Positions 20,791-37,054 of a stretch of DNA of 64,000 bases are shown here, piece by piece. The stretch is from Eubacteriales bacterium (lineage in GTDB: Bacteria; Bacillota; Clostridia; Oscillospirales; JAAYXM01). Position 1 is the first letter of the stretch. Each line of letters begins with the position of its first letter. A program made the position numbers and the translations under genes. The stretch is from positions 14,621 through 78,620 of the forward strand of contig JAZOAI010000028.1 in assembly GCA_045595365.1 (NCBI GenBank), in the 5' to 3' direction. The notes beneath the pieces were generated by a model. The model saw only the letters and a program-made list of their open reading frames with translations. It ran no database searches and was not told the DNA's origin.

Positions 20791-20819
20791 ATTATATCAT
20801 ATGCAACCAAAAAAATCAA
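20791..20819 (-). promoter_or_regulatory. Near-consensus sigma-A promoter inside the invertible segment (currently facing away from the surface locus)
   Basis: The minus strand reads TTGATT - 17 nt - TATAAT. Confidence 0.55.
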
Positions 20820-20960
20820 TGATTTAAAGGTAATTTGCGATAAATCTCCGTTATGCATAAAAATTGGCACCAAAAGTTGACCGATGAAAACTTATCAACT
20901 AACATCGGTCTTATTTTCGTGCCCAAATTACAAATTTCACAGCACTTGATATTCTATTTC

Positions 20961-20983
20961 TCCACATAATGAGAATTATGTGG
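20961..20983 (-). repeat. Inverted repeat right (IRR) of putative invertible segment
   Basis: tccacataatgagaattatgtgg is the perfect 23/23 reverse complement of IRL. It lies 35 nt upstream of the 21018 start codon. Confidence 0.85.
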
Positions 20984-21017
20984 AGAAAGTATTGTTTTTG
21001 AAAGGTGGAATGTCTTT

Positions 21018-21560: not shown

Positions 21561-21593
21561 TGTATTGCTAATAAATATATTGGAGTTGCTAAT

Positions 21594-22769
21594 ATGAAGA
21601 AAACGATTGCAGTGATTATGATATTGTTGCTATGCACCTCAATTATTATTGCATGTGCAACAGTCAATAGTTCAACAGCGGCTAAAAACTACGATGCCCC
21701 ATTTTCTGATGTAAAAGATACAGATTGGTTCTATGAGGATGTTAAGTATGTTTATCAAAACAACTTAATGAATGGTATAAGCAATACCGAATTTTCTCCA
21801 TCTGGAGTTACTACGAGAGGGATGATAGTTACAATCTTGTGGCGACTTGAAGGAGAGCCAATCGAAAAAGGAAAAGATTTCGATGATGTAAATAACGATG
21901 CATATTATTATAATGCTGTAGCATGGGCATCAAACAATCAGATTGTAAACGGATATAGAGAGTCAACTTTTGGCCCAAATGATACAGCTACTCGTGAGCA
22001 GCTTGTCACAATAATGTATCGCTATGCTTCATATAAGAAATATGATATTTCAAAAGAAGCAGAACTTGATAAATATGTTGATGCAAATCAGATCAGCGAA
22101 TATGCAATAAAGAGCATTAAATGGGCGAATGCAAACGGAATTATTTCAGGAACTTCAAATCAAACAATTTCTCCTAAAGATAATGTTCAGAGGTGTCAGG
22201 TTGCGGCAATATTGAAGCGCTTTTGTGTGAACACTGCTGGAATCAAAGACGAAATCTCAAGCGAAGAACAGCCCGAAAAAGATGTTGAAGAAGAAATCGT
22301 TCAGCCTGGAAACAACAAAGGCGATGAAGAATTCACAAGCCAAGAAACGAACACATCCCCAATAATAGTTGCAGATAAAGTTCATGCTAAACCCGGTGAC
22401 GAAGTTGAATTTGTAGTCGAAGTAAAAAACAACCCAGGTATTTTGGGAATGACATTAACGCTTTATTATGATGATACTTTCTGCACATTAGAGTCAGCCG
22501 AAAATGGAGATGCAGTAAAAAACATCTTGGACTTAACAACTTCGAAAGAACTTGGTAATGGTTCTCGTTTCGTATGGGACGGTGTTGAAATAACCGGCAA
22601 AGATATTAAAGATGGCCCTGTTTTGTTGCTCAAATTTAAAGTTAAGGATGATGCTCCTGAAGGGACTTGTCCAATCACGGTAAAATATTTTAACGACGAC
22701 ATTGTAGACAATAACCTTGATGCCGTTTATCCGGTTATTAAAAATGGCGAAATAGTGATTTCAAAATAA
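21594..22769 (+). CDS. Cell-wall-anchoring protein: signal peptide + 3 SLH domains + C-terminal cohesin-like module
   Basis: Three SLH repeats (FSDVKDTDWFYEDVKYV..., FDDVNNDAYYYNAVAWA..., YVDANQISEYAIKSIKWA...), an acidic linker, then a cohesin-type module (GDEVEFVVEVKNNPGILGMTLTLYYD...FVWDG). Confidence 0.8.
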   Translation: MKKTIAVIMILLLCTSIIIACATVNSSTAAKNYDAPFSDVKDTDWFYEDVKYVYQNNLMNGISNTEFSPSGVTTRGMIVTILWRLEGEPIEKGKDFDDVNNDAYYYNAVAWASNNQIVNGYRESTFGPNDTATREQLVTIMYRYASYKKYDISKEAELDKYVDANQISEYAIKSIKWANANGIISGTSNQTISPKDNVQRCQVAAILKRFCVNTAGIKDEISSEEQPEKDVEEEIVQPGNNKGDEEFTSQETNTSPIIVADKVHAKPGDEVEFVVEVKNNPGILGMTLTLYYDDTFCTLESAENGDAVKNILDLTTSKELGNGSRFVWDGVEITGKDIKDGPVLLLKFKVKDDAPEGTCPITVKYFNDDIVDNNLDAVYPVIKNGEIVISK

Positions 22770-22792
22770 ATATACAGAAAGGACAATGTCAA

Positions 22793-25700
22793 ATGAAAAC
22801 CAAGAAGTTGATAGCTTCCTTGCTATCTTTAGTTATGATTTTAAGTATCATAACACCCACTTCAGTATTAGCTTCTACATCAGTTGCTAAATCAACAATC
22901 ACGGTAAAATCTGTTACCGATACTGCCGGAGCAACAGTAGATGTTGATGTTATTATTGAAAACAACCCCGGAATATTGGGCGCTACATTAGAATTTGCTT
23001 ATGATGAAGGATTAACGTTAATCAATGCGTCGAATGGCGAGGCTTTCTCATCATTAACAATGACTAAGCCCGGAAAATTCATATCTCCCTGCAAATTTGT
23101 ATGGGATGCTCAGGAAATCACATCAGATGATGTAAAAGACGGAAAAATCTTGACATTGCAATTCAAGATAGATGATAATGCGCAAGCCGGTGATGAGTAT
23201 AACATTAATGTATCATATCAGTCGGGTGACATTATTGATGCCGACTTGGCAACACTTGAGGCAAATTTAGTAAACGGTTGTGTTTCTGTTGTTGATTATC
23301 TTCCCGGAGATCTTGATGGCGACAGAATTGTCAACACAAGAGATATTGTTTTGCTAAGGCGACATGTCGCCGGCGGATACGACCAAACAGTAAATGAATC
23401 CGCAGCTGATGTAAATAACGATGCGAAAACAAATACGGCAGACATTGTTTTGGTTCGTAGATATATTGCCGGTGGATACGGCGTTGAGCTTAAGCCGTCA
23501 AAACCACAGTGCGACCATACAATGACGGAAACTGCATACAAAGCTCCGGATTGTACAACAACCGGCAATATAGCATATTGGACTTGCACGAAATGCGGCA
23601 GAATATACAGCGATAAGAACGGAACTACGGAGATTTCTGCTAAAGACGTTGAAATAGCTTCACCGGGCCATTCTATTGTAATTGATGCTGCTGTAGCTCC
23701 GACTTATAGCAGTTCGGGATTAACCGAGGGTAAACACTGCTCTGCTTGTGGCGAAATCATTGTTGCCCAGCAGATAATCCCGGCGTTGCAAAAAGAAGAG
23801 TATTCTATAACGTATCATATTGATAGCAACGATGAATATCTGCAATCTATAAATATAAACAATCCTAATCCTAATACATATGCAAAAGAAGAAGGGTTAG
23901 TATTACAAGATTTGATTGTTAAGGGCTACAATTTCGTCGGCTGGTACACAGCGCAGATTGGTGGCGAGAGAGTAACTAAAATCGCAGCAGGAGAAACGGA
24001 AAACAGAACACTGTATGCTCATTGGGAGAAAGTAGAATATAAAGTGCAATTCTCTTCTGATATGGTTGCAATAGGAGATATGAAGTTCACTGCAGGCGAA
24101 GAAAGAACTCTTCCGAATCCCACCTTGGACAGATATACTTTTGTCGGATGGTCAGATAAAGAAGGTAACATCTGGAAAACAATTCCTAAGGGAACTTCAA
24201 AGAACGTAGTTCTTTACGCAAACTGGGCAAGCAATCGAAATAAAGCTGTGCCTGTAAAGAAGCTTGCAGACCCGATAATCTGTGAAGATTCAGAGAATGG
24301 TTTGATGTTGTTCACTTATGAGATTGGTGAAATTCAGAATGTGCCGTTGTACACAATATTGAAGCTTAATTGCGTCAACGGAATTATCTCAACCATTTCT
24401 ACAACCACCAGCCAGGAAATAAGCTCAACACAAGCTAAAACAATTGCGCAAACGATTTCCAATGCCACAACAAATTCAGCGTCCTGGACATTGGAAAACA
24501 GTTGGAATAACTCGACTGAAGTAAGCCAGAGCTATCTTGATCAGACAGGTCAAACTCGTGAAGAGGCAGAATCTCTTGCAAAGAGCAACAGCGGTACATA
24601 TAATCTGTCTTCAAGTAGCGGAGGCTCAAACGGATATACTGATACAAACAGTGGCTCCTACACCCTTTCAGGAAATCAGGGACACTCAAACAGTTCCACA
24701 ACGGAAACGGGTGAGAATTTTGACTTATCAGTTGATGCTAAATTCTCAAGCGAAACCTCAATAGGCGCTGAAGCAAGCATAGAGCTCGTTAAATTAAATG
24801 CAAACCAAAAATTCGGCTTTGAAATAGGCGCCGGAGCAGGTTATGGAAACTATGTGAAAAACACAAATACAGGTACGGACAGTTGGACAAGTGGAATTGA
24901 TATCAGCAATGAAACGTCAAATACCACAACTGCTCAGAAAAATTGGAACACGGCAGAGGGTTATTCGAACAGTAAAACTATAAGTTCGAATACATCTGTT
25001 GCAAATGCCGTTTCAAAGCTCATAAGCCAGGAGTACGGATATGGCTCATCTTATGCAGAAGGTGGAAGCAACAGCAATTCGCAGGCGTTAGCATCCACCG
25101 ACACAAAAAGTGATGAATACAGCACAACGATGACATATCATACGTCAAAAATCGAATCAACAACAAAATCGATTGAGACTACCGGAAATACAATCGGTGA
25201 TTATCGTTATGTTATGGCAGGAACGATTCATGTTTTTGCAGTAATCGGATACGATGTTGCGGAAAGCAGTTACTTTGTCTATACATATAATGTGCTTGAT
25301 GATGAAACCTATGAATATGTAGACTATTCATTTGACGGAACATTTAATGACTATGAAACAAGCATCATACCGTTTGAAATTCCGCACTTTGTAAATGATT
25401 ATGTCAACACACGAATTGCAAAAACATCAGGTTTGCAAATTGATCCTGACACGGGAATGATAATGAACTATATTCCTGATTCGAACAATCCTGATACAAT
25501 CGTCGTAATCCCGTCATATATGTCAATAGACAACGGCGACGGCACATTCAGCTCGGTTAAGGTCAAAGGCATTGCACCGGGATTATTTAAGAACAATACA
25601 AATCTTGTCGGAATAAAGCTTGGAAACTTCATTACCGAGATTCCGGATTCGGCATTCGAGGGTTGTTCGTCACTGAAATATGTTGTTTCTCCGGGAATAA

Positions 25701-27742
25701 CAAAGATAGGCAAAAATGCATTCAGCGGTTGCTCATCTTTAAGTGAGTTCACTATGTCAGAAGAACTTACTTCTCTTGGTGAAAACGCATTTAAAGGCGC
25801 ATTGAAAATTAAAGCAGTTGCATCAAATGCGGCGGTTGCAAAAGCTGTAGCATCCTCAGGTGCAAAAAATATTGTTCTTGATATTTCTGATATACCGGAA
25901 GCTGATGCTGAGAATATGGAGCTTAACATCGGCGATATAACTTCATTTGAGCTTCAGGGTAAAGACAAGGAGTATAAGGGGCTCAGCGTTAAGTCTGATG
26001 CTACGACAACGGTTATAAATGGCGTTAAGTTTGTTGGAGGAACAAAGATTCCTATGGAAATTTCCTCGCCCAATGTAACGCTTAACAGAGTGAGTGCAAA
26101 TGTAATGGGAACACCGCTTGTTCTTAGTGCAGAGAATGCAACTGTAAAGCTTAATCAGACGGTATCACTTTCATCCTCTGCCGGCAATTCTGTGCTTTGT
26201 AAGAATGTATCATTCTCTTCTTTGAGTACAGCCGTGGTAGGAAAGTTGGTTCTTTCGGGTAATATGGTTGTCGCCGGAACAATTAACGGCGCAACCTATA
26301 TAACCTTTAACAAAGGCGAACTCAAAACCGTCTCCGCAAATGAATTTGCAAATTATTACGCTTTTTGTGATGTGATTTGGGACGGAACATCAATAGAGCC
26401 TGCATACAACGCAAGCACAAAGACATACACCGTAACAAATGCGAGAGAGCTTGCTTGGATATCCGATGTTTCAAACGGCGTGATTACAAGCGGAAAGAAC
26501 TTCCCATCAGACATTACATTTAAGGGATATACCGTTAATCTTGCAAACGATATTTACCTCAATGATCCAACAGGATGGGAAAACTGGGAGGCAACTGCAC
26601 CGCGTAATCGCTGGAAAGGATTTAGCTTTGGTGGAGCTTTCAAAGGAAACAGCCATACAATTTATGGATTATATGCAAGCGGTAATACATACTTCATGGA
26701 GGATTGTTTGTTCCAGACTATCTCTACTTCTGGAAGTGTAGAAGACTTGAATATCGTTGAAGGATATTTTGGAGCAATAAGTTATGGCAACGACGGCACT
26801 ATATCAAGATGCACTACCGACGGAAAGGCTTTTTATGCAGGTGTTGTGAGATTTAACGAAGGTACAATTATAAACTGCACTAATAACGCCGATTTGATAG
26901 CGGCCGACGGCAATATATCATTTGGCGGAATAGTAGCATCTAATGGTGGAAGTGTATATAACTGTGTAAACAATGGAGATATACATATAAAAAGAGGAGA
27001 ATCAACAGGCGGAATAGCGGGAAGTTCCAGCGGAACAATTGAATTTTGCAAGAACTATGGAAATATTTTGCGTTCCGGTGGCACTATCGGCAGTACTTCA
27101 ACAGGTGGAATAGCAGGATTAGCCTCAGGAACGATTGAAGGATGTGCTAATTTTGCGACAGTACGGTCTGAAGTAGGATGCTATATCGCCGGAATAGTAG
27201 GAGATGGTGGTTCCTCCCTATACATTTATAAATGCTATAATGCCGGACCGATATATTGCGATGGCTCAGGCTGTGCAGCAGGCATTCTGGGCGGTGCGTA
27301 TGGTGATAAGACTTCCATAACTATTAAAGATTGTTACAATGTGGCGGATATTACTGCAAGTGGAGAAGATGGGCTTGCATCTGGAATAGTCGGAAGGGTT
27401 ACCGTTTCTACTGTTGGAAAGGGAGTTGCTAATATCTCTTGTGTATATAGCGTTGGAAAAGTAACTAAAGTTTCCGACACTCGACCGAGTCTGTTTGATC
27501 TCCTATCGACCGGAGATGGAGAAATTAAGTACTGTTATTCTCCGTCAACCCCATTATATGGATATATAGAAACAGATCCTGACTTTAGTTATATTACGGT
27601 ATCATATGTAAAACAGGTGTCATCTGAAAAAATGAAAACCCTTTCTAACCTTACGGGATTCAGTTCATCAATTTGGGGAACAGATCCTAACATCAACAAC
27701 GGCTATCCGTATCTAAAAGATTTGGAGGACACATACAAGTAG
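22793..27742 (+). CDS. Giant secreted surface protein: cohesin-like + dockerin + Listeria-Bacteroides (Flg_new) repeats + BspA-type LRR + GLUG-like repeats
   Basis: 1649 aa with a signal peptide. Cohesin-like module (VDVDVIIENNPGILGATLEFAYD...FVWDA). Dockerin with two Ca-loop repeats (DLDGDRIVNTRD / DVNNDAKTNTAD). Flg_new repeats GYNFVGWYT...LYAHWE, LRR_5-like IPDSAFEGCSSLKYV, and C-terminal GGIAG...G.I..C.N repeats. Confidence 0.8.
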   Translation: MKTKKLIASLLSLVMILSIITPTSVLASTSVAKSTITVKSVTDTAGATVDVDVIIENNPGILGATLEFAYDEGLTLINASNGEAFSSLTMTKPGKFISPCKFVWDAQEITSDDVKDGKILTLQFKIDDNAQAGDEYNINVSYQSGDIIDADLATLEANLVNGCVSVVDYLPGDLDGDRIVNTRDIVLLRRHVAGGYDQTVNESAADVNNDAKTNTADIVLVRRYIAGGYGVELKPSKPQCDHTMTETAYKAPDCTTTGNIAYWTCTKCGRIYSDKNGTTEISAKDVEIASPGHSIVIDAAVAPTYSSSGLTEGKHCSACGEIIVAQQIIPALQKEEYSITYHIDSNDEYLQSININNPNPNTYAKEEGLVLQDLIVKGYNFVGWYTAQIGGERVTKIAAGETENRTLYAHWEKVEYKVQFSSDMVAIGDMKFTAGEERTLPNPTLDRYTFVGWSDKEGNIWKTIPKGTSKNVVLYANWASNRNKAVPVKKLADPIICEDSENGLMLFTYEIGEIQNVPLYTILKLNCVNGIISTISTTTSQEISSTQAKTIAQTISNATTNSASWTLENSWNNSTEVSQSYLDQTGQTREEAESLAKSNSGTYNLSSSSGGSNGYTDTNSGSYTLSGNQGHSNSSTTETGENFDLSVDAKFSSETSIGAEASIELVKLNANQKFGFEIGAGAGYGNYVKNTNTGTDSWTSGIDISNETSNTTTAQKNWNTAEGYSNSKTISSNTSVANAVSKLISQEYGYGSSYAEGGSNSNSQALASTDTKSDEYSTTMTYHTSKIESTTKSIETTGNTIGDYRYVMAGTIHVFAVIGYDVAESSYFVYTYNVLDDETYEYVDYSFDGTFNDYETSIIPFEIPHFVNDYVNTRIAKTSGLQIDPDTGMIMNYIPDSNNPDTIVVIPSYMSIDNGDGTFSSVKVKGIAPGLFKNNTNLVGIKLGNFITEIPDSAFEGCSSLKYVVSPGITKIGKNAFSGCSSLSEFTMSEELTSLGENAFKGALKIKAVASNAAVAKAVASSGAKNIVLDISDIPEADAENMELNIGDITSFELQGKDKEYKGLSVKSDATTTVINGVKFVGGTKIPMEISSPNVTLNRVSANVMGTPLVLSAENATVKLNQTVSLSSSAGNSVLCKNVSFSSLSTAVVGKLVLSGNMVVAGTINGATYITFNKGELKTVSANEFANYYAFCDVIWDGTSIEPAYNASTKTYTVTNARELAWISDVSNGVITSGKNFPSDITFKGYTVNLANDIYLNDPTGWENWEATAPRNRWKGFSFGGAFKGNSHTIYGLYASGNTYFMEDCLFQTISTSGSVEDLNIVEGYFGAISYGNDGTISRCTTDGKAFYAGVVRFNEGTIINCTNNADLIAADGNISFGGIVASNGGSVYNCVNNGDIHIKRGESTGGIAGSSSGTIEFCKNYGNILRSGGTIGSTSTGGIAGLASGTIEGCANFATVRSEVGCYIAGIVGDGGSSLYIYKCYNAGPIYCDGSGCAAGILGGAYGDKTSITIKDCYNVADITASGEDGLASGIVGRVTVSTVGKGVANISCVYSVGKVTKVSDTRPSLFDLLSTGDGEIKYCYSPSTPLYGYIETDPDFSYITVSYVKQVSSEKMKTLSNLTGFSSSIWGTDPNINNGYPYLKDLEDTYK

Positions 27743-27857
27743 AAACAAAGCTTCTCTGACGGGAAAACGTAAGAGTTATTGCAGTGAAAAACAAGTAAAT
27801 TTATCGACTTGTGATTGCCCTCTTGGGCAATCACAGGTGGAAAGGAAATGATACAAT

Positions 27858-30800
27858 GTGAAGCAGAAGAGAATAATTGCTTGCTTGCTGTCAATGGTGA
27901 TGTTATTAACAACATTTGCGCCAATTTCCGCTTTTGCTATAGCAGAGCCAACCATAACGGTGCAAACAGTAACAGATGTTGCAGGTGCTACTGTTGAGGT
28001 GGATGTTGTTTTAGCAAATAACCCCGGAATATTAGGTGCTATATTGACAATTAGCTATGACGAAGGGCTGACACTCCTTGATGCATCATCAGGAGAAGCG
28101 TTTTCAGGCCATTCGATGACAAAGCCCGGAAAGTTTACATCTCCTTGTAAATTTGTTTGGGACGGTGAGGACATTGATTCCATCGAAGTAAAAGATGGAA
28201 CGATACTTACACTTCAATTCAAAATCTCCGAAGATGCAGAGGCAGGACATGAATATGCCGTAAACGCATCATGTGTAAAAGGAGATATAACAGACAACGA
28301 CTTAAATGACATTGATGTCAAGATTGTCAACGGAAGCGTTAACGTTGTCGATTATATGCCCGGAGACCTCGACAATGATCAGATTGTTAATACAAGGGAC
28401 ATTATCTTGCTCCGCCGAGACATTGCCGGAGGCTACGAACAAGAGATAAATAAATTGGCCGGTGATGTCAATGCTGATGCTACAAGAAATACAAAAGATA
28501 TTATTCTTATCCGCAGATTCATTGCAAGCGGATATGGAGTAGAACTATTGCCCGGCAAGAGTGCCTGCGATCACAATTTGACAAAAACAGATTACAAAGC
28601 TCCAACGGAATCAGCTGCAGGTAATATTGAATATTGGACATGTTCACTTTGCGGAAAGTATTACAGTGATAATGGCGGAAAAACAGAGATTACACTTGCC
28701 GATACTGTAATTGAAGCAACAGGTGGTGAGGTTGATCCCAATGCACCAACAATAACTTACCACATCGCAAACAATGATACATATCTTGAAAGCATTATTA
28801 TAGATAATCCCAACCCGAAAACTTATTCAACAGAGACCGGATTGGTTCTCCAGGATCTGATTGTTAAGGGATATAATTTCAAAGGTTGGTTTACTGCTCA
28901 GACAGGTGGAACACAGGTAACAAAGATTGATGCTGGAGAGACAACAAACAAGACCCTTTATGCTCATTGGGAAAAAGTAACTTATACAGTAAGCTTTGCA
29001 TGCGATATGGTTCTTCCTGGTGGAGAGATAAGTGATATTACATACACAGTAGATAAAGAGTATGTCTTGCCTAAACCTACAATGGATAAATATACATTTG
29101 TTGGTTGGACAGATAAATCAGGTCAATTGTGGAAATCGATACCTGAAGGTACAACAGGAAACATTAACCTTTATGCTAACTGGGCAAGTAATAGAAATAA
29201 AGCTGTTGCGAAAGAAAGCCTTGATGCACCGTTCATTTTTGAAGACACAGATAATGGTCTGATACTCTTTACCTATGAAATTGGTGAAATACAGAATGTT
29301 CCTTTGTTTACAACACTAAAACTAAATTGTGTAAATGGTATTATTTCAACTACAGAAGTAACTAAAACAAGTGAAATTAGCGACACACAAGCATCTGCTA
29401 TTGCACAGTCTATTTCAAACGCAACTACAAATTCTTCATCGTGGACCTTGTCAAGCGACTGGAATGAGACGACCGAAGTTAGTGAAAAATATTTAGAAGA
29501 AACAGGCAAGACAAGAGAAGAGGCTGAGACTTTATCAAAGAGTGAAAGCAATACATATTTCCTAAACTCTAGCAGCGGAGGTTCAGCGGATACTGTAACA
29601 GTAGATGGTACAACATATAAGCATTCAGGTAATGTTGCAGGTTCATCAACGACTGACATGGGAATCAAACAAACTTCCTCACTTAATTCAAAAGTAGGCG
29701 GTGGCATTGGACTTGGAAATGAAAAAAGTTTAATTAGTGGTAATGTTTCTGCGGAAATCGAAGCAGGGAAAAGTCAAGAATTGTCAGTTAATATGTCTGG
29801 GACAAATGGATGGGATGAAGGCGAAGAACAAGGGACGGATCATTCAACCACAAAAACAGAGTCTAGTAACTGGAATTCAACATCTGGATATGAAAACAGT
29901 AAAACCACTAGCCAGAGCACAACAATCTCAAACATTATTTCTCAAGTCGTAAGCCAAGAAAAGGGATACGGTGAAACATATTCTTCTGGTGGAAGCAATA
30001 GCGAAGCACAAGCTTTTGCGTCATCAAACACACAAAATGATGAATATAGTTCAACTATGACATACTATACATCTACAATTGAATCCTCAACTACGTCTTT
30101 CTCAAGCACAGGAAATACAATTGGAGATTATAGAATGGTCATTGCCGGAACTGTACATGTTTTTGCAGTAGTTGGATATGATATTGCAAACAAAGAATAT
30201 TTTGTTTATACATACAATGTTTTGGGTGATGGCTCGAAGGATGATGGAACTTACGAGTATCTCGACTACTCATTTGATGGTTCCTTTAAAGATTATGAAA
30301 CAACAGTTATTCCTTTTGAGGTTCCATACTTTGTAAATGAGTATGTTGCGAATAGAATAGCAAAAACAGATGGATTATTGTTTGATCCAGATACAGGAAT
30401 GATAGTAGATTATCTTCCTGAAGATGGAACAACAGCGAATGTTGTTATCATACCGTCCTATATTGTTGTTGATAACAACGATGGTACATTCAGTGCAGAA
30501 AAGGTTACAGGCATAGCACCTGGATTATTCAAGAACAACACAACTATAAAAGCTGTTCAGTTAGGACGATTTATAACTGAAATACCTGATTCGGCATTTG
30601 AAGGTTGTACATCATTGGAATACCTACTATGTCCGGGTGTAACAGAAATAGGAAACAGTGCATTTAGCGGATGTACATCGTTAGAAAGCTTTGCGCTTCC
30701 TGTTGAAATAACAACAGTAGGCGAAAATGCCTTTGAAGGTGTACCGGAAGTTAAAGCGACAGCATCTAACGCAGATATTGCGCAGGCTGTAGCGGCATGT

Positions 30801-32114
30801 GGCGCAGAGAATATTGTGTTGGATATCTCCGCTATTCCTAGTGAAGAAACTGAAGGAATGGAGTTTGTCATTGGCGACATTGAATCGTTCGAACTTCAGG
30901 GCAAAGACAAGGAATACAAGGGATTAAGCGTCAAGTCAGATGCTGCCAAAACAGTTATTAACGGTGTCACAATCACAGAAAATACAAAAATTCCTTTAGA
31001 ACTTTCTTCAAGCGAAGTTGTTCTTGACCGTGTAACCGTTGAAGCAACAGGATACGCGCTTGTTCTCAAAGCTGAAGAAGCAGCTCTTTCAATGAACAGA
31101 ACCATTAACCTCAGATCATTAAATGGTAATGCGGTTCTTTGCAAAAACATTGACCTCGCGCCTCTGACGACAGGCATTGTTGGCAAGTTAAGTGTAGCTG
31201 GAAATGTTATGGTATGTGGTCAAATTGCAAACGATAGATACCTTGCAGTTTCTGATGGCGAAATTATTTACATCACCGCAGAAGAATTTGAAAACTATCT
31301 ATCCTCGCACAAAATCACATTTGATCCAAATGGCGGCTCAGTTACAACGGAGAGCAAAATTGCATCGCTGAATATGCCAATCGGCGAATTACCTGTTCCA
31401 AGCAGAGATTATTATTCGTTTGATGGATGGTACACTGAGGTTGATGGTGGCGAAAAAGTGACTGCAGAGACTCTTATGACTGCACTTACAGATATTACGC
31501 TGTATGCGCATTGGATACAGAATGATGTATCTGCATGGACTCTGGCCACTGAGGTTCCGGAAGATGCTGAGATAGTTGATAGAAAGTTCACTTATACTCA
31601 AACATTGTACACAACATCAAACTCATCTTCATTAAGCGGATGGACACAGTATAATTCTGAAAGAACTGATTGGGGAGCAACCGTAGGTCCGGTATACTCT
31701 AATCCAACGAATGGAAGCAGAAATGTATGGAGTGAACGATATGTGACTTCTACCACTACACACTATAAGTATTATCACAGATATACTGGCAGTGTTTGGG
31801 GATCGGATTCTACTGCACCGAATAGTGCAAGACACTCAGCTCCTGATATAACATATCAGCTTTCACCGTCAGGAAAATACGGCACAAGTATTCAGTTCTA
31901 TGGATCATTGGCATGCCCGGCATGTGGTGCTAAGAATATGTGGATTCCGGATGGCACAACTAAAACAAACAATTACGGTACAAGATGGTACTATCAAGAA
32001 CCTGTATATACCTATTACTACAGCAAGACAGAAGATAAAGAATCGCAGAGCGATCCGTCAGAACTAGCTGATGTATCTAATGTTGAGGAATGGGTACAGT
32101 ACAGAATAAAGTAA
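27858..32114 (+). CDS. Giant secreted surface protein, paralog of 22793-27742 with a different C-terminal module
   Basis: 1418 aa with a GTG start behind aggtggaaagg. It is collinear with the upstream paralog for the first ~1,000 residues (cohesin-like, dockerin, Flg_new, LRR). It then ends in a Flg_new repeat and a Trp/Tyr/Cys-rich domain instead of GLUG-like repeats. Confidence 0.8.
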   Translation: MKQKRIIACLLSMVMLLTTFAPISAFAIAEPTITVQTVTDVAGATVEVDVVLANNPGILGAILTISYDEGLTLLDASSGEAFSGHSMTKPGKFTSPCKFVWDGEDIDSIEVKDGTILTLQFKISEDAEAGHEYAVNASCVKGDITDNDLNDIDVKIVNGSVNVVDYMPGDLDNDQIVNTRDIILLRRDIAGGYEQEINKLAGDVNADATRNTKDIILIRRFIASGYGVELLPGKSACDHNLTKTDYKAPTESAAGNIEYWTCSLCGKYYSDNGGKTEITLADTVIEATGGEVDPNAPTITYHIANNDTYLESIIIDNPNPKTYSTETGLVLQDLIVKGYNFKGWFTAQTGGTQVTKIDAGETTNKTLYAHWEKVTYTVSFACDMVLPGGEISDITYTVDKEYVLPKPTMDKYTFVGWTDKSGQLWKSIPEGTTGNINLYANWASNRNKAVAKESLDAPFIFEDTDNGLILFTYEIGEIQNVPLFTTLKLNCVNGIISTTEVTKTSEISDTQASAIAQSISNATTNSSSWTLSSDWNETTEVSEKYLEETGKTREEAETLSKSESNTYFLNSSSGGSADTVTVDGTTYKHSGNVAGSSTTDMGIKQTSSLNSKVGGGIGLGNEKSLISGNVSAEIEAGKSQELSVNMSGTNGWDEGEEQGTDHSTTKTESSNWNSTSGYENSKTTSQSTTISNIISQVVSQEKGYGETYSSGGSNSEAQAFASSNTQNDEYSSTMTYYTSTIESSTTSFSSTGNTIGDYRMVIAGTVHVFAVVGYDIANKEYFVYTYNVLGDGSKDDGTYEYLDYSFDGSFKDYETTVIPFEVPYFVNEYVANRIAKTDGLLFDPDTGMIVDYLPEDGTTANVVIIPSYIVVDNNDGTFSAEKVTGIAPGLFKNNTTIKAVQLGRFITEIPDSAFEGCTSLEYLLCPGVTEIGNSAFSGCTSLESFALPVEITTVGENAFEGVPEVKATASNADIAQAVAACGAENIVLDISAIPSEETEGMEFVIGDIESFELQGKDKEYKGLSVKSDAAKTVINGVTITENTKIPLELSSSEVVLDRVTVEATGYALVLKAEEAALSMNRTINLRSLNGNAVLCKNIDLAPLTTGIVGKLSVAGNVMVCGQIANDRYLAVSDGEIIYITAEEFENYLSSHKITFDPNGGSVTTESKIASLNMPIGELPVPSRDYYSFDGWYTEVDGGEKVTAETLMTALTDITLYAHWIQNDVSAWTLATEVPEDAEIVDRKFTYTQTLYTTSNSSSLSGWTQYNSERTDWGATVGPVYSNPTNGSRNVWSERYVTSTTTHYKYYHRYTGSVWGSDSTAPNSARHSAPDITYQLSPSGKYGTSIQFYGSLACPACGAKNMWIPDGTTKTNNYGTRWYYQEPVYTYYYSKTEDKESQSDPSELADVSNVEEWVQYRIK

Positions 32115-32182
32115 GTAAGTCGCCAGATGCCTACCTCTGACTTAAGAGGTAGGCTGAGGTTAAAGAATTAAGGAGGATTTTT

Positions 32183-35100
32183 ATGAAAGCAATAGCAAAA
32201 AGATTTGTCGCATGCTTGTGTGTTATATCAATGATACTGTCTATGATGATGGTCGCACAGGCTTCCGGCACAGAAATTGTAGTTGGCAAAACTACTTTGG
32301 TACAAGCAAACGGAGAAGAAATTGTTCAAATCCCAATTGATCTCTCAGGTAATACCGGTATCGCAGGTATGACTTTGAGAATTTCATACACTGAGGGCTT
32401 GACATTAACGGAGATAGCAAAGGGTTCTGGCTTGGCTTCTTTGACAATGACAAAACCTGGTGTTTTAACATCAAATCCTTTTAATCTTGTTTGGGATGGA
32501 CAAGATGCCGACACATCAAATGGTACAGTTGCAACATTAGTTTTCACAGTACCTAAGAATACAGTCAAAGATTATGAAATCACTGTAATTCCTGATGGCG
32601 TTTTTGACAATGATCTTAACGATGTTACAATAAATATTACAAATGGAAAGATATCTGTCGAAGAAAAGCCGAAGGAAAACTTCGCTGGATTATCATTCGC
32701 TGATGCAACTTTTACTTATGATGGCACAGAAAAGGCTCTTGCAGTATCAGGACTTCCCTCCGGAGCATCTGTCACATATACAAGTGCAGATTTTGATGCG
32801 GATGGCAAAGCAATCGATGCCGGAACATACAACATTACAGCAACAGTTAAGAAAGATGGATATAATGATTGGTCCGATGAAGCTACATTAACAATCGATC
32901 CTAAAGCAATTTCCGTAACAGGAATTACCATATCAAATAAGGAATATGACGGTACTGACGCAGCTATACTGAGTGGCGGTACAATTTCAGGACTCGTTGC
33001 TCGTGATGCGGCAGATCAGTACTGTGATGAGCATCAGGGATATAGAATTAAGTATTACATCCCTGAATTTGGTACATTCGCTGATGCAAACGCAGGCACA
33101 AATAAAGCGGTTACAATTGATGAGATTGTTCTTACTGGTTGCTCGGCTGAAAACTATGTTTTAACACAGCCTACAGGTTTAAAGGCTAATATTACTAAAG
33201 CTCCGATTACTGTTACAGCAAAGGACGTTACAATAAAGACAGGAGCTACTATTCCTAATTTTGACGAGAATAGTTATGAAATCACTTCCGGAAAATTGTT
33301 TGGTGACGATAAAATAACAGGTAGTTTAGCAACAAATTGCACATCTACTTCTGCTGCTAAAGACTTCAATATTACACAGGGAACTTTAACAGCAGGTAAC
33401 AACTATAACTTGACATTTGTTGCCGGCAAGTTGTCTGTTGTTGATAAAACAGTACAAAATGTAACTGTTGACGGTGTTGTTACCGAAAAAACATATGGTG
33501 ATGACGGATTTAAGATTACGGTAACACCTGATGTAAATTCTAGTCTTGACAACTTCACAATTACATCAAGCAATACAAATGTTGCAGATATTGATGAAAG
33601 TGGCAATGTTACAATCAACAATGCAGGAACAACAACTATTACTGTAAAAGAAGCTGGTAATGCTGAATATGCTCCGTTCGAAAAGAGCTGGACACTTACA
33701 GTAAAGAAATTACCTCTTACAATTACAGCTGACAACAAGACGAAGAAAATCGGTCAGGAAGACCCACAGCTTACACATCAGCTTGCAGGCGAATTGGTAG
33801 GTTTTGATACTCTTGAAGTAACCCTTGTTAGAGAACAAGGCGAAGCAGTTGGTAAATATGCTATTACAAATAAAAAGATTGTAGTTAGTGATAACTACGA
33901 AATCACTTTCAATCCGGGTGTATTTGAAATTGTTGACAAAACACCACAGGTAATTACAGTAGATGGCGTTGTAGAAAAGAAGGCATATGGTGATGACGGG
34001 TTTAAGATCACTGTAACACCTGATGCAACTTCTAAGCTTGACAATTTCTCAATAACTTCAAGTGATGCAAATGTTGCAATTGTTGACGAAAGTGGAAATG
34101 TTACAATTAAAGGCGCCGGTATTACTACCCTCTCTGTAAAAGAAGCTGGCAACGAAGAATACGCAGCATTTGAAAAGACTTGGACACTTACGGTAGATAA
34201 AGCAAAGGTTACAATTACAGCAGATAATATCACTAAGAAAATTGGCCAGAATGATCCGGAACTTACATATTCAGTAAATGGTAATTTGTATGGTGAAGAT
34301 AAAGTAACCGGTGAGCTTGCAAGAACAGCAGGCGAAGAATTAGGCAAATACGACATCCTTATTGGTACATTGGCAATCAACAATAATTATGAAATCGCCT
34401 TTAATAAAGGTATATTCGAAATCGTTGATAAAACTCCTCAGGTTATCACCGTTGCTGATATTGATGCAAAAACGTATGGCGATGCATCTTTTAAACTTGA
34501 AGTAACACCTGACGCTACTTCAAAGCTTGATACATTTACATATGTCAGCAACAATGTTGATGTTGCAGATGTTGAATCTGACGGAACAGTAACAATTAAA
34601 GGTGCTGGTGAAACTACTATTACTGTTAGCCAGGCTGGTAACGAAGAATATGCAGCAACAGAAAAAACTGTTAAATTAGTTGTTGATCCCATTACAGTAG
34701 CAGTTACTGCAATTGATATGGACAACAAGACAGCAACAATTGAAGGAGTTTTAGAAGCTGATAAGGCAGGCGTAGAGCTTGACTTCGATAATGTTAAAAC
34801 AACGGTTATTTCTTCAGAGAAATCAACTGTTGAAGAAACAACAACTATTACCTCAACACTTAAAGTAACTAACCTTAAAATTAAAGGTGAAAAGGCGAAG
34901 AATTATGTTGTAGATAAGGGCACTTCATTAACAACGACTGTTGTGTCAACAACAGTAACAGAAAAACTTACTGAAGATGAAAATGTTACAATCGAAGCTG
35001 CTCCTGTTGATGATAAAACTATTATAGTGACAGACGTAGCTGTTGCTCCTGAAGCGGAAGTTAAGAAGGTTACCATTGACGTAACTGCAATAGCTGATAC

Positions 35101-36448
35101 TAAGATTAATACGGTTGCAATTCCGAAAGCAACAGTAGATACAATTATTGGTATCGATGCTGAAGCTGCTCTTGAAATCACTCTCAAAGATGGTAGTGAT
35201 GAAAACAAAGAAAGTACAATTACCTTGAATGCGCAGGCACTTGCAGCAATCCAAACCGCCGGTACTTCGGCAACAACAATATCCATCTCTGTAGATAAAA
35301 CAGAAAAAGAAGAATTGGCGACTGAACAGGCTGCAACGGTTGAAGAAGTATCAACCAAAGCTCCGGTAGTTTACACCTTGAGCATCGTAGATGAAGATGG
35401 CAATTCTGTAGCAGGTAGCTTTGGAGATGGTGGTTCAGCTACTGTAAAACTTCCTTATGCAAAACCTGCTGGTAACGGAAATGTTGTTGTGAAGTATTTG
35501 GACGATTTGGGTAATTTAACAAACATAACCAATCCTTCATATGATAGTGCTACACAGCTTGTAACTGTTGTACTTGGACACTTCTCTGAATACTTGATTT
35601 ATACCGAACCTGTAGTTAGCCACGGCGGTGGCGGCGGTGGTGTTTCAAGATACACCATAAAATTTGAAACTAATGGCGGTAGCGCAGTTAAAGCAATTAC
35701 AGTTAATAAGAACGCTGTTGCAGAAGAACCGACTGCACCGATAAAAGAGGGTTTCAAGTTTGAAGGCTGGTACACAGATAAAGAACTTACAACAGCTTAC
35801 AATTTCACAGCAAAAGTTACAAAGAACTTCACCCTTTATGCTAAGTGGATAGAAACTGAAAAAGAACCTGAAGTTGTTGAACCCGAAACATCAACTGCAT
35901 TTACAGACGTTAAGGAAAACGATTGGTTCTATGCAGATGTTCAGTATGTTGTTGAAAACAACCTTATGAATGGTGTTGGCAATGATAAGTTTGCTCCTAA
36001 TGATACACTTACAAGAGCAATGCTTGTAACAGTTCTTTATCGCAACGCAGGTGAGCCTGCTACAAATAGAAGCATTCCGTTTGCCGATGTTGATATGGGT
36101 GCATATTATGCAAATGCTGTTTCTTGGGCAAAGCAGAATGGTATTGTAAACGGTGTAACTGAAAACGAATTTGCACCTGATGCAAATATCACTCGTGAAC
36201 AGATTTCTGCTATTATGTTTAGATATGCACAGTACAAGGGTTATGATGTAAGCGTTGGAGAAAACACAAATATTCTTTCCTATACCGATGCAGAAAGCGT
36301 TTCTGAATATGCAGTAGCTTCTATGCAGTATGTAGTTGGTGGCGGCCTTATCAAGGGCAAAACAACTACAACACTTAATCCGAAAGATAATGCTACAAGA
36401 GCTGAAATTGCAGCAATTCTTCAGAGATTTATTGAAGCTAACAAATAA
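32183..36448 (+). CDS. Giant S-layer-homology-anchored surface protein: cohesin-like + MBG/Ig-like repeat arrays + Flg_new + 3 C-terminal SLH domains
   Basis: 1421 aa with a signal peptide and a cohesin-like module (IPIDLSGNTGIAGMTLRISY...LVWDG). It has tandem 164-aa Big_2-like + MBG-like units, a Gly6 tract, and C-terminal SLH repeats (FTDVKENDWFYADVQYV...). Confidence 0.8.
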   Translation: MKAIAKRFVACLCVISMILSMMMVAQASGTEIVVGKTTLVQANGEEIVQIPIDLSGNTGIAGMTLRISYTEGLTLTEIAKGSGLASLTMTKPGVLTSNPFNLVWDGQDADTSNGTVATLVFTVPKNTVKDYEITVIPDGVFDNDLNDVTINITNGKISVEEKPKENFAGLSFADATFTYDGTEKALAVSGLPSGASVTYTSADFDADGKAIDAGTYNITATVKKDGYNDWSDEATLTIDPKAISVTGITISNKEYDGTDAAILSGGTISGLVARDAADQYCDEHQGYRIKYYIPEFGTFADANAGTNKAVTIDEIVLTGCSAENYVLTQPTGLKANITKAPITVTAKDVTIKTGATIPNFDENSYEITSGKLFGDDKITGSLATNCTSTSAAKDFNITQGTLTAGNNYNLTFVAGKLSVVDKTVQNVTVDGVVTEKTYGDDGFKITVTPDVNSSLDNFTITSSNTNVADIDESGNVTINNAGTTTITVKEAGNAEYAPFEKSWTLTVKKLPLTITADNKTKKIGQEDPQLTHQLAGELVGFDTLEVTLVREQGEAVGKYAITNKKIVVSDNYEITFNPGVFEIVDKTPQVITVDGVVEKKAYGDDGFKITVTPDATSKLDNFSITSSDANVAIVDESGNVTIKGAGITTLSVKEAGNEEYAAFEKTWTLTVDKAKVTITADNITKKIGQNDPELTYSVNGNLYGEDKVTGELARTAGEELGKYDILIGTLAINNNYEIAFNKGIFEIVDKTPQVITVADIDAKTYGDASFKLEVTPDATSKLDTFTYVSNNVDVADVESDGTVTIKGAGETTITVSQAGNEEYAATEKTVKLVVDPITVAVTAIDMDNKTATIEGVLEADKAGVELDFDNVKTTVISSEKSTVEETTTITSTLKVTNLKIKGEKAKNYVVDKGTSLTTTVVSTTVTEKLTEDENVTIEAAPVDDKTIIVTDVAVAPEAEVKKVTIDVTAIADTKINTVAIPKATVDTIIGIDAEAALEITLKDGSDENKESTITLNAQALAAIQTAGTSATTISISVDKTEKEELATEQAATVEEVSTKAPVVYTLSIVDEDGNSVAGSFGDGGSATVKLPYAKPAGNGNVVVKYLDDLGNLTNITNPSYDSATQLVTVVLGHFSEYLIYTEPVVSHGGGGGGVSRYTIKFETNGGSAVKAITVNKNAVAEEPTAPIKEGFKFEGWYTDKELTTAYNFTAKVTKNFTLYAKWIETEKEPEVVEPETSTAFTDVKENDWFYADVQYVVENNLMNGVGNDKFAPNDTLTRAMLVTVLYRNAGEPATNRSIPFADVDMGAYYANAVSWAKQNGIVNGVTENEFAPDANITREQISAIMFRYAQYKGYDVSVGENTNILSYTDAESVSEYAVASMQYVVGGGLIKGKTTTTLNPKDNATRAEIAAILQRFIEANK

Positions 36449-36462
36449 TCCTAAAAACATAG

Positions 36463-36493
36463 TTAACCCCCTTGCCGTAAGCAAGGGGGTTAA
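36463..36493. terminator. Bidirectional terminator between convergent genes
   Basis: Stem ttaacccccttgc / gcaagggggttaa with loop cgtaa. Confidence 0.65.
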
Positions 36494-36495
36494 TG

Positions 36496-37053: not shown

Positions 37054-37054
37054 T

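Follow-up and report, generated by a model that had tools for sequence, protein, structure and literature searches.

Organization of the P1–P4 block

The DNA analysed here, a 64 kb stretch referred to as the window, comes from a gut Oscillospiraceae/Clostridia bacterium. Four consecutive plus-strand genes, numbered P1–P4 in their order along 21594–36448, code for proteins that all have a signal peptide and a single cohesin module. An earlier sequence-only reading had proposed this arrangement; the open reading frames were found where it placed them and all four cohesins score above the Pfam threshold.

P1 (21594–22769, 391 aa) consists of the signal peptide, three SLH modules and a C-terminal cohesin at about 22368–22760 (class A, an anchor cohesin). 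In P4 (32183–36448, 1421 aa) an N-terminal cohesin at about 32300–32659 (class B) is followed by YDG, three MBG_2 and Big_2 modules, a Flg_new stalk and three C-terminal SLH modules at about 35900–36445. The SLH triplets that the same reading had assigned to these two proteins were recovered by Pfam (PF00395, three stretches per protein) with 103.5 bits for P1 and 107.7 bits for P4. Both proteins have three tandem SLH modules, as expected of SLH-mediated cell-wall anchoring, and wall binding is predicted for them.

The two genes in between encode giant paralogues. P2 (22793–27742, 1649 aa) contains a cohesin (22895–23287), a dockerin (23303–23467), Cys-rich motifs, two Flg_new repeats, a core region (24224–25507), an LRR_5 region (25559–25825) and a variable, GLUG-like C-terminus. 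P3 (27858–32114, 1418 aa) begins likewise with a cohesin (27951–28346) and a dockerin (28359–28523) and continues with the core, LRR_5, Flg_new and a Trp/Cys-rich C-terminal domain to which the Pfam search assigned no family. Flg_new and LRR_5 were detected by Pfam in both giants, in line with the Flg_new repeats and BspA-type LRR expected of them. The GLUG-like repeats expected in P2 gave no Pfam match to PF07581 even at E ≤ 1; since seven full-length homologues covering 100% of P2 have precomputed PF07581 matches, the P2 C-terminal region is probably a divergent GLUG relative. No catalytic or glycoside-hydrolase domain was found in P1–P4 with Pfam or NCBIfam, as had been anticipated.

Upstream of P1, orf180 (21018–21560, plus strand) encodes a small protein with an N-terminal transmembrane segment. 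It has no match in Pfam, NCBIfam or PADLOC, and related cassette loci contain no homologue. Downstream, a GC-rich terminator-like hairpin (36463–36493; 14 bp stem with seven GC pairs) lies between P4 and the convergent gene orf199.

The mobile element and its cargo bay

The block lies in a low-GC island that extends from about 4.9 to 38.7 kb of the window; repeats common to both island borders are only 11–13 nt long, which is at chance level. Comparison loci are labelled with L-numbers (L002, L170 and so on). On the left side, all on the minus strand, are genes for a large serine recombinase (7974–9722; Pfam Resolvase, Recombinase and Zn_ribbon_recom), a ParB-like backbone protein (9993–10850; ParB_N and HTH_ParB), a backbone relaxase of the MobA/VirD2 type (10847–12220; PF03432, 131.8 bits; 83% identical to the L170 relaxase), a NikA-like mobilization accessory protein (12221–12550; 61 bits; 56% identical to the L170 counterpart) and orf114, a conserved backbone reading frame of 114 aa (12673–13017; 94% identical in L170). 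On its right side the cargo bay is bordered by the backbone gene orf199 (36496–37095, minus strand; 85% identical to the L178 counterpart), followed by backbone TnpV (37055–37435, minus strand; 125.4 bits; 83% identical to that of L178).

This backbone is common to L170 and L178. The bay, bounded by a tyrosine recombinase gene and a switch on one side and by orf199 and TnpV on the other, is variable among elements of this type: it holds Band_7, DUF6591 and AbiEi/AbiEii genes in L170, two SHOCT genes with TPR and DUF6273 genes in L178–L182, and P1–P4 as singleton cargo in the window. The shared backbone and the position of the cassette in the variable bay strongly support the proposal of the sequence-only reading that the block is mobile-element cargo; judged from these gene arrangements, the carrier would be a mobilizable integrative element. 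The island also encodes defence-like genes, PDC-S13 (2e-128) and an AAA ATPase.

Mobilizable transposons of the Tn4451/Tn4453 type in Clostridia combine a large serine recombinase, TnpV and a relaxase with accessory cargo. The window element likewise unites a large serine recombinase, TnpV, a mobilization relaxase and cargo. It differs in that its relaxase is of the MobA/VirD2 type with NikA rather than the Mob_Pre-type TnpZ, in its gene order and in its additional ParB gene and tyrosine-recombinase switch. An assignment to Tn4451 proper was rejected on account of the missing TnpZ (Mob_Pre) relaxase and the different gene order.

A survey of the genomic context of related cassettes, which had been suggested as a check, gave a divided answer. 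L002–L006 represent a second mobilizable element, in which SLH-cohesin, giant and cohesin-SLH genes lie beside a relaxase and a large serine recombinase. Recombinase or relaxase genes are found near related cassettes only in the window, L002–L006, L009 and L011; most cassettes have no recombinase nearby, and the association with mobile elements or invertons is not general.

The inversion switch

The tyrosine recombinase (19883–20722, plus strand; Pfam Phage_integrase, 106.9 bits, with a SAM-like N-terminal domain) is the probable switch invertase. Its NCBIfam matches are Xer-like, with weak invertase matches; it belongs to a cluster of 148 members at at least 90% identity and is 91–92% identical to the recombinases of L170, L178 and L179. 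Starting 11 bp past its stop codon, the left inverted-repeat arm (20733–20755) is a 23 nt lox-like palindrome, CCACATAAT-TCTC-ATTATGTGG, 100% complementary to the 23 nt right arm (20961–20983); the core sequence of the arms recurs in L011, L170 and L178–L182. The arms enclose an invertible segment of 205 bp (20756–20960), which is homologous to the L011 segment and matches that of L179 at 147/209 positions. Within it are a consensus-matching promoter (20791–20819, minus strand; TTGATT-17-TGATATAAT) directed at the recombinase gene and, on the plus strand, a hairpin with a T-rich tract (20866–20931; −22.2 kcal/mol, z −5.4), terminator-like in the assembled orientation. The hairpin is conserved in L011, where it shows compensatory changes, and is also present in L170 and L179.

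L178 and L179 have nearly identical flanks (390/390 and 1498/1501 positions), and their internal segments match (205/209) only when one of them is reversed. Among L178–L182, whose recombinase is 91% identical to that of the window, the switch in L178 has the opposite orientation to that in L179–L182, and other, more distant switches of the class likewise occur in both states. A comparable promoter was found in 75% of 79 class switches compared with 10% of shuffles; 44 are directed at the recombinase and 15 at the cargo. The occurrence of a near-identical switch in both orientations and the enrichment of the class promoter strongly support the idea, already put forward from the letters alone, that the block lies behind an inverton; by these comparisons, the element upstream of P1–P4 would be a true one. 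Elsewhere, switches of this class drive genes for capsule/EPS, for pilus adhesins and for a Flg_new protein. The window copy looks to be OFF for the cassette because its promoter points at the recombinase gene; its terminator-like hairpin is directed at the cassette.

The switch might have no bearing on P1–P4, the cassette being transcribed from a constitutive promoter further downstream while the inverton governs only orf180 or an antisense transcript of the recombinase gene. A site that could drive such switch-independent expression, TGGACA-17-TATAAT with an extended −10 (TG), is present at 21039–21067 and matches at 11/12 positions. It lies downstream of the switch but within the orf180 coding sequence, and the number of promoter-like matches in this AT-rich region hardly exceeds expectation (70 against 57). 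In the ON leader the right repeat arm forms a hairpin (−19 kcal/mol) with a T-rich tract behind it, which could attenuate ON transcripts, and orf180 is an insertion absent from L011, whose switch directly adjoins the SLH-cohesin gene. Against such a decoupling, the analogous switches in L011, L010 and L009 lie directly upstream of an SLH-cohesin gene, and we consider it unlikely.

In Escherichia coli, the short promoter segment fimS can invert and lies next to the genes for the tyrosine recombinases FimB and FimE; it turns a surface adhesive structure on and off. The window switch is also a promoter inverton next to a tyrosine recombinase gene, with a predicted effect on P1–P4 expression. Sequences and host are unrelated, fimS resides in the chromosome and its cargo is fixed, and its inverted repeats measure 9 bp, in contrast to the 23 bp lox-like palindromes described here. 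The Clostridioides difficile cwpV switch, acted on by RecV, controls a phase-variable wall-anchored protein of Clostridia (PMC2784873). In this switch, as in that of the window, a pair of inverted repeats of about 21–23 bp encloses a segment of 195–205 bp immediately ahead of the gene, a tyrosine recombinase is associated with the system, and the OFF state has a hairpin of the terminator type (PMC2784873); both states of a switch near-identical to that of the window are seen in sister elements. The cwpV switch contains no promoter and recV lies elsewhere in the chromosome (PMC2784873), whereas the window switch has its promoter inside and the recombinase gene abutting, and the whole unit belongs to a mobile element with exchangeable cargo.

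Cohesin and dockerin modules

The cohesins match PF00963 (gathering score 24.1) with 45.9 bits for P1 in a whole-protein scan and with 35.8, 50.0 and 32.9 bits for P2, P3 and P4, respectively, when their isolated N-terminal modules are scanned; the latter three are missing from the whole-protein Pfam listing. The best PDB sequence match of the cohesins is ScaE (E about 1e-3). An AlphaFold2 (AF2) model of P2 residues 1–239 (pLDDT 89.6, pTM 0.72) places cohesin and dockerin in one confident unit. The best 50 PDB matches of this model are all cohesins (TM 0.83 to 2xdh and 0.78–0.81 to type I cohesins), and the P2 head is accordingly predicted to adopt the cohesin fold.

Directly behind their N-terminal cohesins, where a two-repeat dockerin had been read, both giants match PF00404 (Dockerin_1, gathering score 22.9), P2 with 37.5 bits (aa 171–225) and P3 with 28.7 bits (aa 168–222). 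In each dockerin, two canonical D-x-[DN]-x-D...D loops lie 33 residues from one another and both repeats have RR at positions 17–18; the dockerins match type I dockerins in the PDB (E about 1e-7). By their motifs they are type-I-like and internally symmetric, with two predicted F-hand repeats.

From the last cohesin strand motif to the start of the dockerin there are six residues in P2 and P3, a spacing kept in 87/96 homologues. This invariant adjacency with almost no linker, and the single confident unit in the AF2 model, could mean that the cohesin and dockerin of a giant bind each other within one chain, in a stabilizing or auto-inhibited clasp, and that the SLH-cohesins serve other partners. 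With about six residues between the strand motif and the first Ca loop, however, a contact in cis with the canonical 8-3-6-5 face seems sterically unlikely. Moreover, anchor cohesin genes accompany headed giants and not headless ones: an adjacent cohesin gene is present at 20/21 loci with a Coh-Doc-headed giant, and two headless giants have none nearby. A clasp of this kind appears improbable to us. We infer instead that P2 and P3 would dock onto the SLH-cohesins P1 and P4.

The window contains four cohesins and two dockerins in total, every one of them inside P1–P4. The cohesins fall into three conserved classes and the dockerins into one, so the proposed self-contained nature of the assembly is doubtful and partners encoded outside the block are possible. 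Such partners could be dockerin-bearing glycosidases or proteases, recruited by the P1, P4 and head cohesins with the giants as accessory substrate binders. The spare cohesins in three classes would suit this arrangement, and a single anchoring cohesin of Ruminococcus bromii takes amylases, peptidases and LRR proteins alike (PMC4611034). Against it, no CAZyme or other dockerin gene is found in the window or beside 21 related cassettes, and the cassette moves as a unit on mobile elements, in the window as a singleton cargo. We give enzyme recruitment little weight. A cellulosome or amylosome identity was discarded, P1–P4 having no catalytic domain and the window no further dockerin. A catalytic domain is also absent from the best 120 homologues listed, and because the system is enzyme-free both there and in the window it would not be a cellulosome, which agrees with the sequence-only reading.

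The family of giant proteins

P2 and P3 belong to an extensive, so far unstudied family, which comprises 522 clusters at 50% identity and is defined by an unannotated core of 430 aa. The core, and not the LRR, is the most strongly conserved part of the giants, and it has no sequence relatives in the PDB or Pfam. The Coh-Doc dyad usually heads the core (76% of family representatives), and cohesin-bearing anchors usually flank the giants; in 31/150 representatives the N-terminal slot is taken by a dockerin alone, SLH or a lipobox (lipoprotein tether), an interchange that lends indirect support to docking. C-terminal variants among the best 120 homologues listed include Lectin_C, GBS_Bsp-like, PASTA and GLUG. 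An adhesin role of the giants is a guess from this domain content.

The frequency of the head, its fixed spacing and its confident single-unit model would also suit a head-to-tail fibre, in which the dockerin of each giant binds the head cohesin of the next and a non-covalent, pilus-like chain or brush is seeded on P1 and P4. Cohesins outnumber dockerins in every cassette, and the R. bromii protein Amy4, which carries both modules, binds its own dockerin (PMC4611034). The head cohesins of the giants, however, form a lineage separate from the anchor cohesins, which suggests a different specificity, and the existence of giants with a dockerin only indicates that the head cohesin is dispensable. 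We regard the fibre as a serious but minority possibility. It is compatible with docking onto the anchors, but it alters the architecture.

Core residues 641–680 form a period-2 amphipathic stretch family-wide (at or above the 99th percentile), with conserved S/T-rich tracts on both sides. The AF2 model of the core (pLDDT 48.6) contains predicted β-hairpins of 20–27 residues, and the leading Foldseek matches of this model are pore-state toxins, none of them significant (E ≥ 0.012, TM ≤ 0.11). The core might, on these grounds, be a module of the β-pore-forming type for contact-dependent killing, or the protein layer might block phage adsorption as CwpV does; PDC-S13 and the AAA ATPase on the island, and AbiE in the same bay of sister elements, would fit. 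The element would then carry the cassette as a competition or defence trait. Ordinary β-sheets also contain amphipathic strands, however, and the lack of significance of the Foldseek matches and the isolation of the core in the PDB and Pfam speak against a toxin, while LRR and lectin-type modules suit binding proteins. A weapon or shield seems to us a poor prospect.

Comparison with known cohesin systems

In Clostridium (Acetivibrio) thermocellum, SdbA, OlpB, Orf2p, OlpA and OlpC combine a cohesin with triple SLH modules and tether dockerin partners to the wall. Structures 3ul4 and 4dh2 of this system appear among the PDB matches obtained here. P1 and P4 share the combination of cohesin and triple SLH, and the dockerins resemble type I. 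The cohesins of the block are distant in sequence, as the ScaE match shows, in P1 the SLH modules are N-terminal and the cohesin C-terminal, and the partners are giant and non-catalytic.

The R. bromii amylosome (Amy4, Sca2 and LRR-dockerin proteins; PMC4611034) is, like the present block, a cohesin–dockerin system of gut Clostridia outside cellulose degradation, and in both one protein carries a cohesin together with a dockerin (PMC4611034). Its LRR-bearing dockerin proteins bind cohesins and dock on a wall-anchored single-cohesin protein (PMC4611034), as would the giants here. The amylosome is GH13-centred, sortase-anchored and constitutive, with chromosomally dispersed genes, whereas the present block has no enzyme, SLH anchoring and a rigid N-terminal Coh-Doc dyad, and its genes sit together behind an inverton in one mobile-element cassette.

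Proposed assembly

We consider P1–P4 to be, on balance, an enzyme-free cohesin–dockerin surface-display cassette that occupies the cargo bay controlled by the switch of a mobilizable integrative element, the docking within it being deduced from the modules and their neighbourhood. Upon inversion, transcription from the promoter would cross the right repeat arm and continue into orf180 and P1–P4. The SLH triplets of P1 and P4 would bind the cell wall, P1 offering its cohesin near the wall and P4 at the tip of an Ig-like stalk of about 1,000 aa. The P2 and P3 dockerins would plug into these cohesins and so display the core, the BspA-type LRR and the variable lectin-like C-termini to ligands on the host, on particles or on other cells. 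The cohesin rigidly joined to each dockerin would provide an additional socket. The probable giant surface structure may be both transferable between bacteria and switchable on and off.

Domain composition of the cassette

The cassette (21594–36448) consists of four consecutive genes on the + strand: P1 (21594–22769, 391 aa), P2 (22793–27742, 1649 aa), P3 (27858–32114, 1418 aa) and P4 (32183–36448, 1421 aa). The sequence-only reading had described four secreted proteins with one cohesin-type module each, and this was borne out: the ORF coordinates were exact, a typical N-terminal signal peptide was read from each translation and the cohesins exceeded the gathering score. The P1 cohesin was found in the whole-protein Pfam scan. 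The cohesins of P2, P3 and P4 were invisible in whole-protein scans; scanned separately as isolated N-terminal modules, they gave 35.8, 50.0 and 32.9 bits, respectively (gathering score 24.1). Three SLH stretches were assigned by Pfam to each of P1 and P4, in agreement with the triple anchors read earlier, and Dockerin_1 was placed at residues 171–225 of P2 and 168–222 of P3, directly after the N-terminal cohesin as had been proposed. The whole 64 kb window contained exactly four cohesins and two dockerins. The earlier reading of the four proteins as free of glycoside-hydrolase catalytic domains also held, no catalytic domain being detected in P1–P4 by Pfam or other family scans.

The adhesin-type modules ascribed to the giants P2 and P3 were retained in part: Flg_new and LRR_5 were found in both by Pfam, and the GLUG repeats attributed to P2 were not (PF07581 matches were carried by seven full-length P2 homologues). 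The C-terminal domain of P3 matched no family. P4 contained YDG, three MBG_2, Big_2 and Flg_new domains (Pfam).

Residues 1–239 of P2 were modelled with AF2 (pLDDT 89.6, pTM 0.72), and the best 50 PDB matches of the model were all cohesins. The TM score was 0.83 against the non-cellulosomal cohesin of Archaeoglobus (2xdh) and 0.78–0.81 against type I cohesins. By sequence, the P2 and P3 dockerins were closest to type I dockerins (about 1e-7), and the cohesins of P1–P4 were remote from solved ones (best match ScaE, about 1e-3).

Repeated Cys-rich motifs (C..H....C / GHT.V.D....PTC...G..EG.HC..C) were observed in residues 232–335 of P2 (23486–23800) and in the same region of P3 and relatives. 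Zinc-ribbon matches of this stretch were all sub-threshold; the family profile matched the IgA protease structure 9qa6 over it at 8e-10. The motif recurred in many matches without a cohesin.

The family of giants and their cohesin neighbours

A search with the N-terminal cohesin–dockerin (Coh-Doc) head yielded 92 relatives, mostly unnamed, and one with full-length P2 yielded 2,303 proteins at E ≤ 1e-10. The best 120 of the latter all had the architecture of P2 and were named only 'InlB B-repeat-containing' or 'leucine-rich repeat protein'. Clustering of the giants gave 522 groups at 50% identity and over 2,300 at 90%. The core (P2 residues 478–905) delimits a bounded family: of 1.84 billion representatives, 522 belong to it, and 264 of these match at E ≤ 1e-30. 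Conservation was highest at residues of about 450–1100, not in the LRR, and the C-terminus past residue 1200 was variable. Relatives, the sole basis for placing the host, included an Oscillospiraceae MAG at 82–83% identity.

Genomic context was compared in 21 loci from genomes and metagenomes of goat, sheep, deer, cattle, mouse and human gut, including the isolates Clostridium sp. AM49-4BH and Jutongia hominis BX3. At least one cohesin-bearing gene lay immediately beside the giant in 20 of the 21. The neighbouring cohesin proteins carried SLH, an N-terminal TM segment or choline-binding-type repeats, or were multi-cohesin proteins. Three cohesin lineages were kept across loci: the giant heads, the C-terminal anchor cohesins (including P1) and the N-terminal/multi-cohesin group (including P4).

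In two of the related loci (L018, 6529–8304; L022, 296–2137) three-cohesin proteins ended in a single dockerin-like F-hand (..NVVDNGIINAKDFALINKL..), which may be a naturally truncated dockerin; such a form has reportedly been described recently in R. flavefaciens. A small unannotated C-terminal domain ending ..AKVMWW..KP.C.AQT.N was common to multi-cohesin and Coh-X proteins of SLH-type cassettes (L009, 8714–9967; L010, 8161–9975; L011, 3268–4401; L012, 14888–15661).

The dockerin head

Among the best 150 of the 522 core representatives, 114 carried an N-terminal Coh-Doc head, four began Coh-Coh-Doc and seven had a dockerin without a cohesin. A further 24 had neither module, and some of these started with SLH or a lipoprotein signal. 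This range of starts indicates that the N-terminus of the giants is an exchangeable tethering slot. For two headless giants no cohesin gene was found within 8 kb. These comparisons support, short of proof, the view that the dockerin would tether the giants to neighbouring cohesins. A point of caution for this view is that three classes of cohesin stood against a single class of dockerin. The dockerin was internally symmetric: both repeats have S/T at position 10 and RR at positions 17–18 (89–96% conserved). The cohesin-to-dockerin spacing was fixed at six residues in 87 of 96 proteins.

The invertible switch

The claim that the cassette lies behind an inverton was strongly supported by perfect inverted repeats beside the recombinase gene and by a near-identical switch found in both orientations. 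The left arm (23 nt, 20733–20755) begins 11 bases after the stop codon of the tyrosine recombinase gene (19883–20722, +) and is 100% complementary to 20961–20983, with 205 bp between the two (20756–20960). Both arms are lox-like palindromes whose centres are asymmetric (TCTC versus GAGA).

A metagenome scan with the arm pattern gave at least 120 loci; among those listed, 79 had a homologous recombinase abutting the repeats. In several contig groups among the 79 the flanks were at least 98.5% identical, and the 213 bp inner segment was 99–100% identical only when reversed. The decisive case for inversion of the window's own type of switch is a pair of contigs with near-identical recombinases (L178 and L179): their flanks agreed at 390/390 and 1498/1501 positions, and the inner segment, which is about 70% identical to that of the window, agreed at 205/209 positions reversed and 113/209 forward. 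Nine of the 15 contigs with a near-identical recombinase stopped within or at the switch, either 36–67 nt (L171, L175, L177 and L183) or 226–352 nt (L172–L174, L176 and L184) after the recombinase gene. Such ends are as expected if both orientations were present in one sample and broke the assembly.

The same arrangement was found at L011 directly upstream of the SLH-cohesin gene, with a recombinase 65% identical to that of the window. L010 has a similar pair of repeats and no recombinase in the 6.5 kb upstream of them; a recombinase may act on these repeats in trans, or they may be a relic. At L009 a different, perfect 27 nt repeat (6106–6132/7441–7467) encloses a whole tyrosine recombinase gene (32% identity to that of the window), directly upstream of a cassette of SLH-Coh, 2×Coh and giant genes. 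This is a predicted second, unrelated inversion design before the same kind of cargo.

A strong sigma-70-type promoter was detected in 75% of the 79 segments versus 10% of shuffles; class-wide, 44 promoters pointed towards the recombinase and 15 towards the cargo. The promoter of the window's switch, a consensus match (TTGATT-17-TGATATAAT, 20819..20791, − strand), points towards the recombinase, and a conserved hairpin with a T-tract (−22.2 kcal/mol, z −5.4) faces the cassette. The assembled state of the window therefore looks OFF. The hairpin is provisionally read as a terminator; a strand-specific one was rejected, since the stem folds on both strands and only the T-tract favours the + strand. 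Elsewhere, the same class of switch precedes genes for Wzz, a sugar transferase, NusG-like proteins, a pilus adhesin with VWA plus 9×FctA, an SpaA protein, an Flg_new protein and a helicase, a predicted cargo typical of phase-variable surface repertoires.

Two further features were observed near the right arm. The arm extends to a 14 bp perfect hairpin (20957–20988, −19 kcal/mol, z −6.2), after which the + strand reads GTATTGTTTTT. In the ON state this hairpin would form part of the 5′ leader, where it might reduce transcription. Downstream of the switch at 21039–21067, just inside orf180 (21018–21560, +), is the best promoter-like match of the region (TGGACA-17-TATAAT with TG, 11/12). It may act as a promoter independently of the switch or may have arisen by chance in AT-rich DNA.

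The mobile element and its cargo bay

The cassette lies within a low-GC island (roughly 4.9–38.7 kb) that encodes a large serine recombinase, ParB, a MobA/VirD2 relaxase, NikA and TnpV. At 90% identity, none of P1–P4 clustered with any other of about 15 billion proteins, and the tyrosine recombinase upstream of them belonged to a 148-member cluster. Between the window and the contigs with a near-identical tyrosine recombinase (91–92% identity), the backbone products were 94% (orf114), 85% (orf199), 83% (relaxase) and 83% (TnpV) identical. Between the switch and orf199/TnpV, one of these contigs (L170) carries Band_7/Zn-ribbon, DUF6591 and AbiEi/AbiEii genes, and five others (L178–L182) carry genes for two SHOCT proteins, a TPR protein and a DUF6273 protein. 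Given a common backbone with differing genes at this place, the Coh-Doc cassette sits in a variable cargo bay of a family of mobilizable elements, and its earlier description as mobile-element cargo stands.

The contents of the bay ranged from small membrane, SHOCT and TPR proteins to AbiEi/AbiEii and the 15 kb Coh-Doc cassette. Comparison of L170–L184 with 19883–37435 of the window revealed a second variable region, upstream of the recombinase. A mobile element that equips exchangeable cargo with a built-in ON/OFF promoter may merit separate study.

A defence-like block of the island (14317–19677) had the lowest GC content in the window (0.27–0.35). It encodes an AAA ATPase (NsnB/AriA/PtuA-like, 1e-16) that carries a fused methyltransferase domain, an HD-domain protein of 821 aa and a Bro-N protein matching the PADLOC candidate PDC-S13 over its full length (E 2e-128). 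At this position L170 has ALP_N/ParM-like and DUF6076 genes and one gene of 280 aa instead.

A second mobilizable element with SLH-Coh, giant and Coh-SLH genes was present in at least five metagenomes (L002–L006) and is only distantly related to that of the window (33% identity between the relaxases, 26% between the serine recombinases). A 197-aa serine resolvase/invertase-type gene (about 646–1239 in L002) immediately precedes its SLH-Coh gene. No inverton is claimed there because no inverted repeat of at least 14 nt was found around this gene. L009 has serine recombinase, TnpV and tyrosine recombinase genes together with its cassette, and no recombinase was found in the fetched flanks of most other cassette loci. 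With recombinases at few loci, mobility is a trait of some lineages and not of the giant family.

Comparison of the two borders of the element for terminal repeats or att sites gave chance-level matches only, and exact-match look-ups with P1, P2 and the flanking GAPDH recovered no empty site. The low-GC region has a Cu/Zn superoxide dismutase gene (5046–5528) at its left edge and a tRNA-Leu(CAA) gene (40605–40690) about 2 kb past its right edge; neither could be tied to an insertion site of the element.

The conserved core

No PDB or Pfam relatives of the core (P2 478–905) were found by profile and HMM searches. In the family alignment, residues 641–680 showed a sustained period-2 alternation of hydropathy (at or above the 99th percentile of the protein) with conserved S/T-rich tracts on both sides. 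The AF2 model of the core contained very long β-hairpins at an unusable pLDDT of 48.6. Pore-state toxins at the top of the Foldseek list for this model were not counted as evidence, the matches being non-significant (E ≥ 0.012, TM ≤ 0.11). The alternation and the modelled hairpins are treated only as a lead towards a pore module. We consider it very improbable that the core is a membrane-inserting β-hairpin module of pore-forming type and the cassette a transferable, phase-variable weapon, its giant toxins held at the wall by cohesin–dockerin plugs, perhaps pre-oligomerized on multi-cohesin scaffolds, and aimed by LRR/lectin tips at neighbour cells. If true, the cassette would represent a novel mode of contact-dependent antagonism among Gram-positive bacteria of the gut.

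Proposed working and biological implications

Cohesin–dockerin pairing has mostly been studied as the glue of fibre-degrading enzyme complexes. Non-cellulosomal cohesins and dockerins, SLH anchors, LRR-dockerin proteins, tyrosine-recombinase invertons and mobilizable transposons are all known parts. In the literature, as far as our incomplete coverage extended, no description was found of a conserved enzyme-free cassette with a rigid N-terminal Coh-Doc dyad on giants, of the family-defining core or of such a cassette in a switch-controlled cargo bay of a mobile element. Searches pairing cohesin or dockerin with invertible promoters returned nothing, and with mobile elements nothing relevant, a weak negative given that coverage. 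Precedents come from R. bromii, which has LRR-dockerin proteins and a protein that binds its own dockerin (PMC4611034), and from cwpV, a clostridial wall protein with a tyrosine-recombinase switch of roughly 200 bp (PMC2784873).

Building on the observed modules, cargo-bay position and switch, with its inversion in near-identical elements, the cassette probably works as follows. Inversion would turn the switch promoter towards orf180 and P1–P4. P1 and P4 would bind the wall via SLH, presenting a cohesin near the wall (P1) or on a long Ig-like stalk (P4). P2 and P3 would dock by their dockerins and display the core, the LRR and the variable C-terminus, and the head cohesin of the giants could serve as a further socket.

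If this is correct, structural work would have an obvious target in the conserved 430-aa core, the rigid Coh-Doc dyad might find use in protein engineering and the switch-controlled cargo bay would be of interest as a natural gene-expression module. The results suggest that in a large, essentially unstudied family in human, mouse and ruminant gut Clostridia the same glue mounts giant non-enzymatic proteins on the cell wall, and thus a wider role for cohesin–dockerin pairing than enzyme complexes. In at least one lineage of mobilizable elements, Coh-Doc cassettes find an expression slot with ON/OFF control already in place. If the proposed working holds, gut Firmicutes could gain a surface architecture in a single transfer event and vary it stochastically afterwards, which would bear on colonization, aggregation, escape from immunity and phages, and differences between strains in metagenomes.
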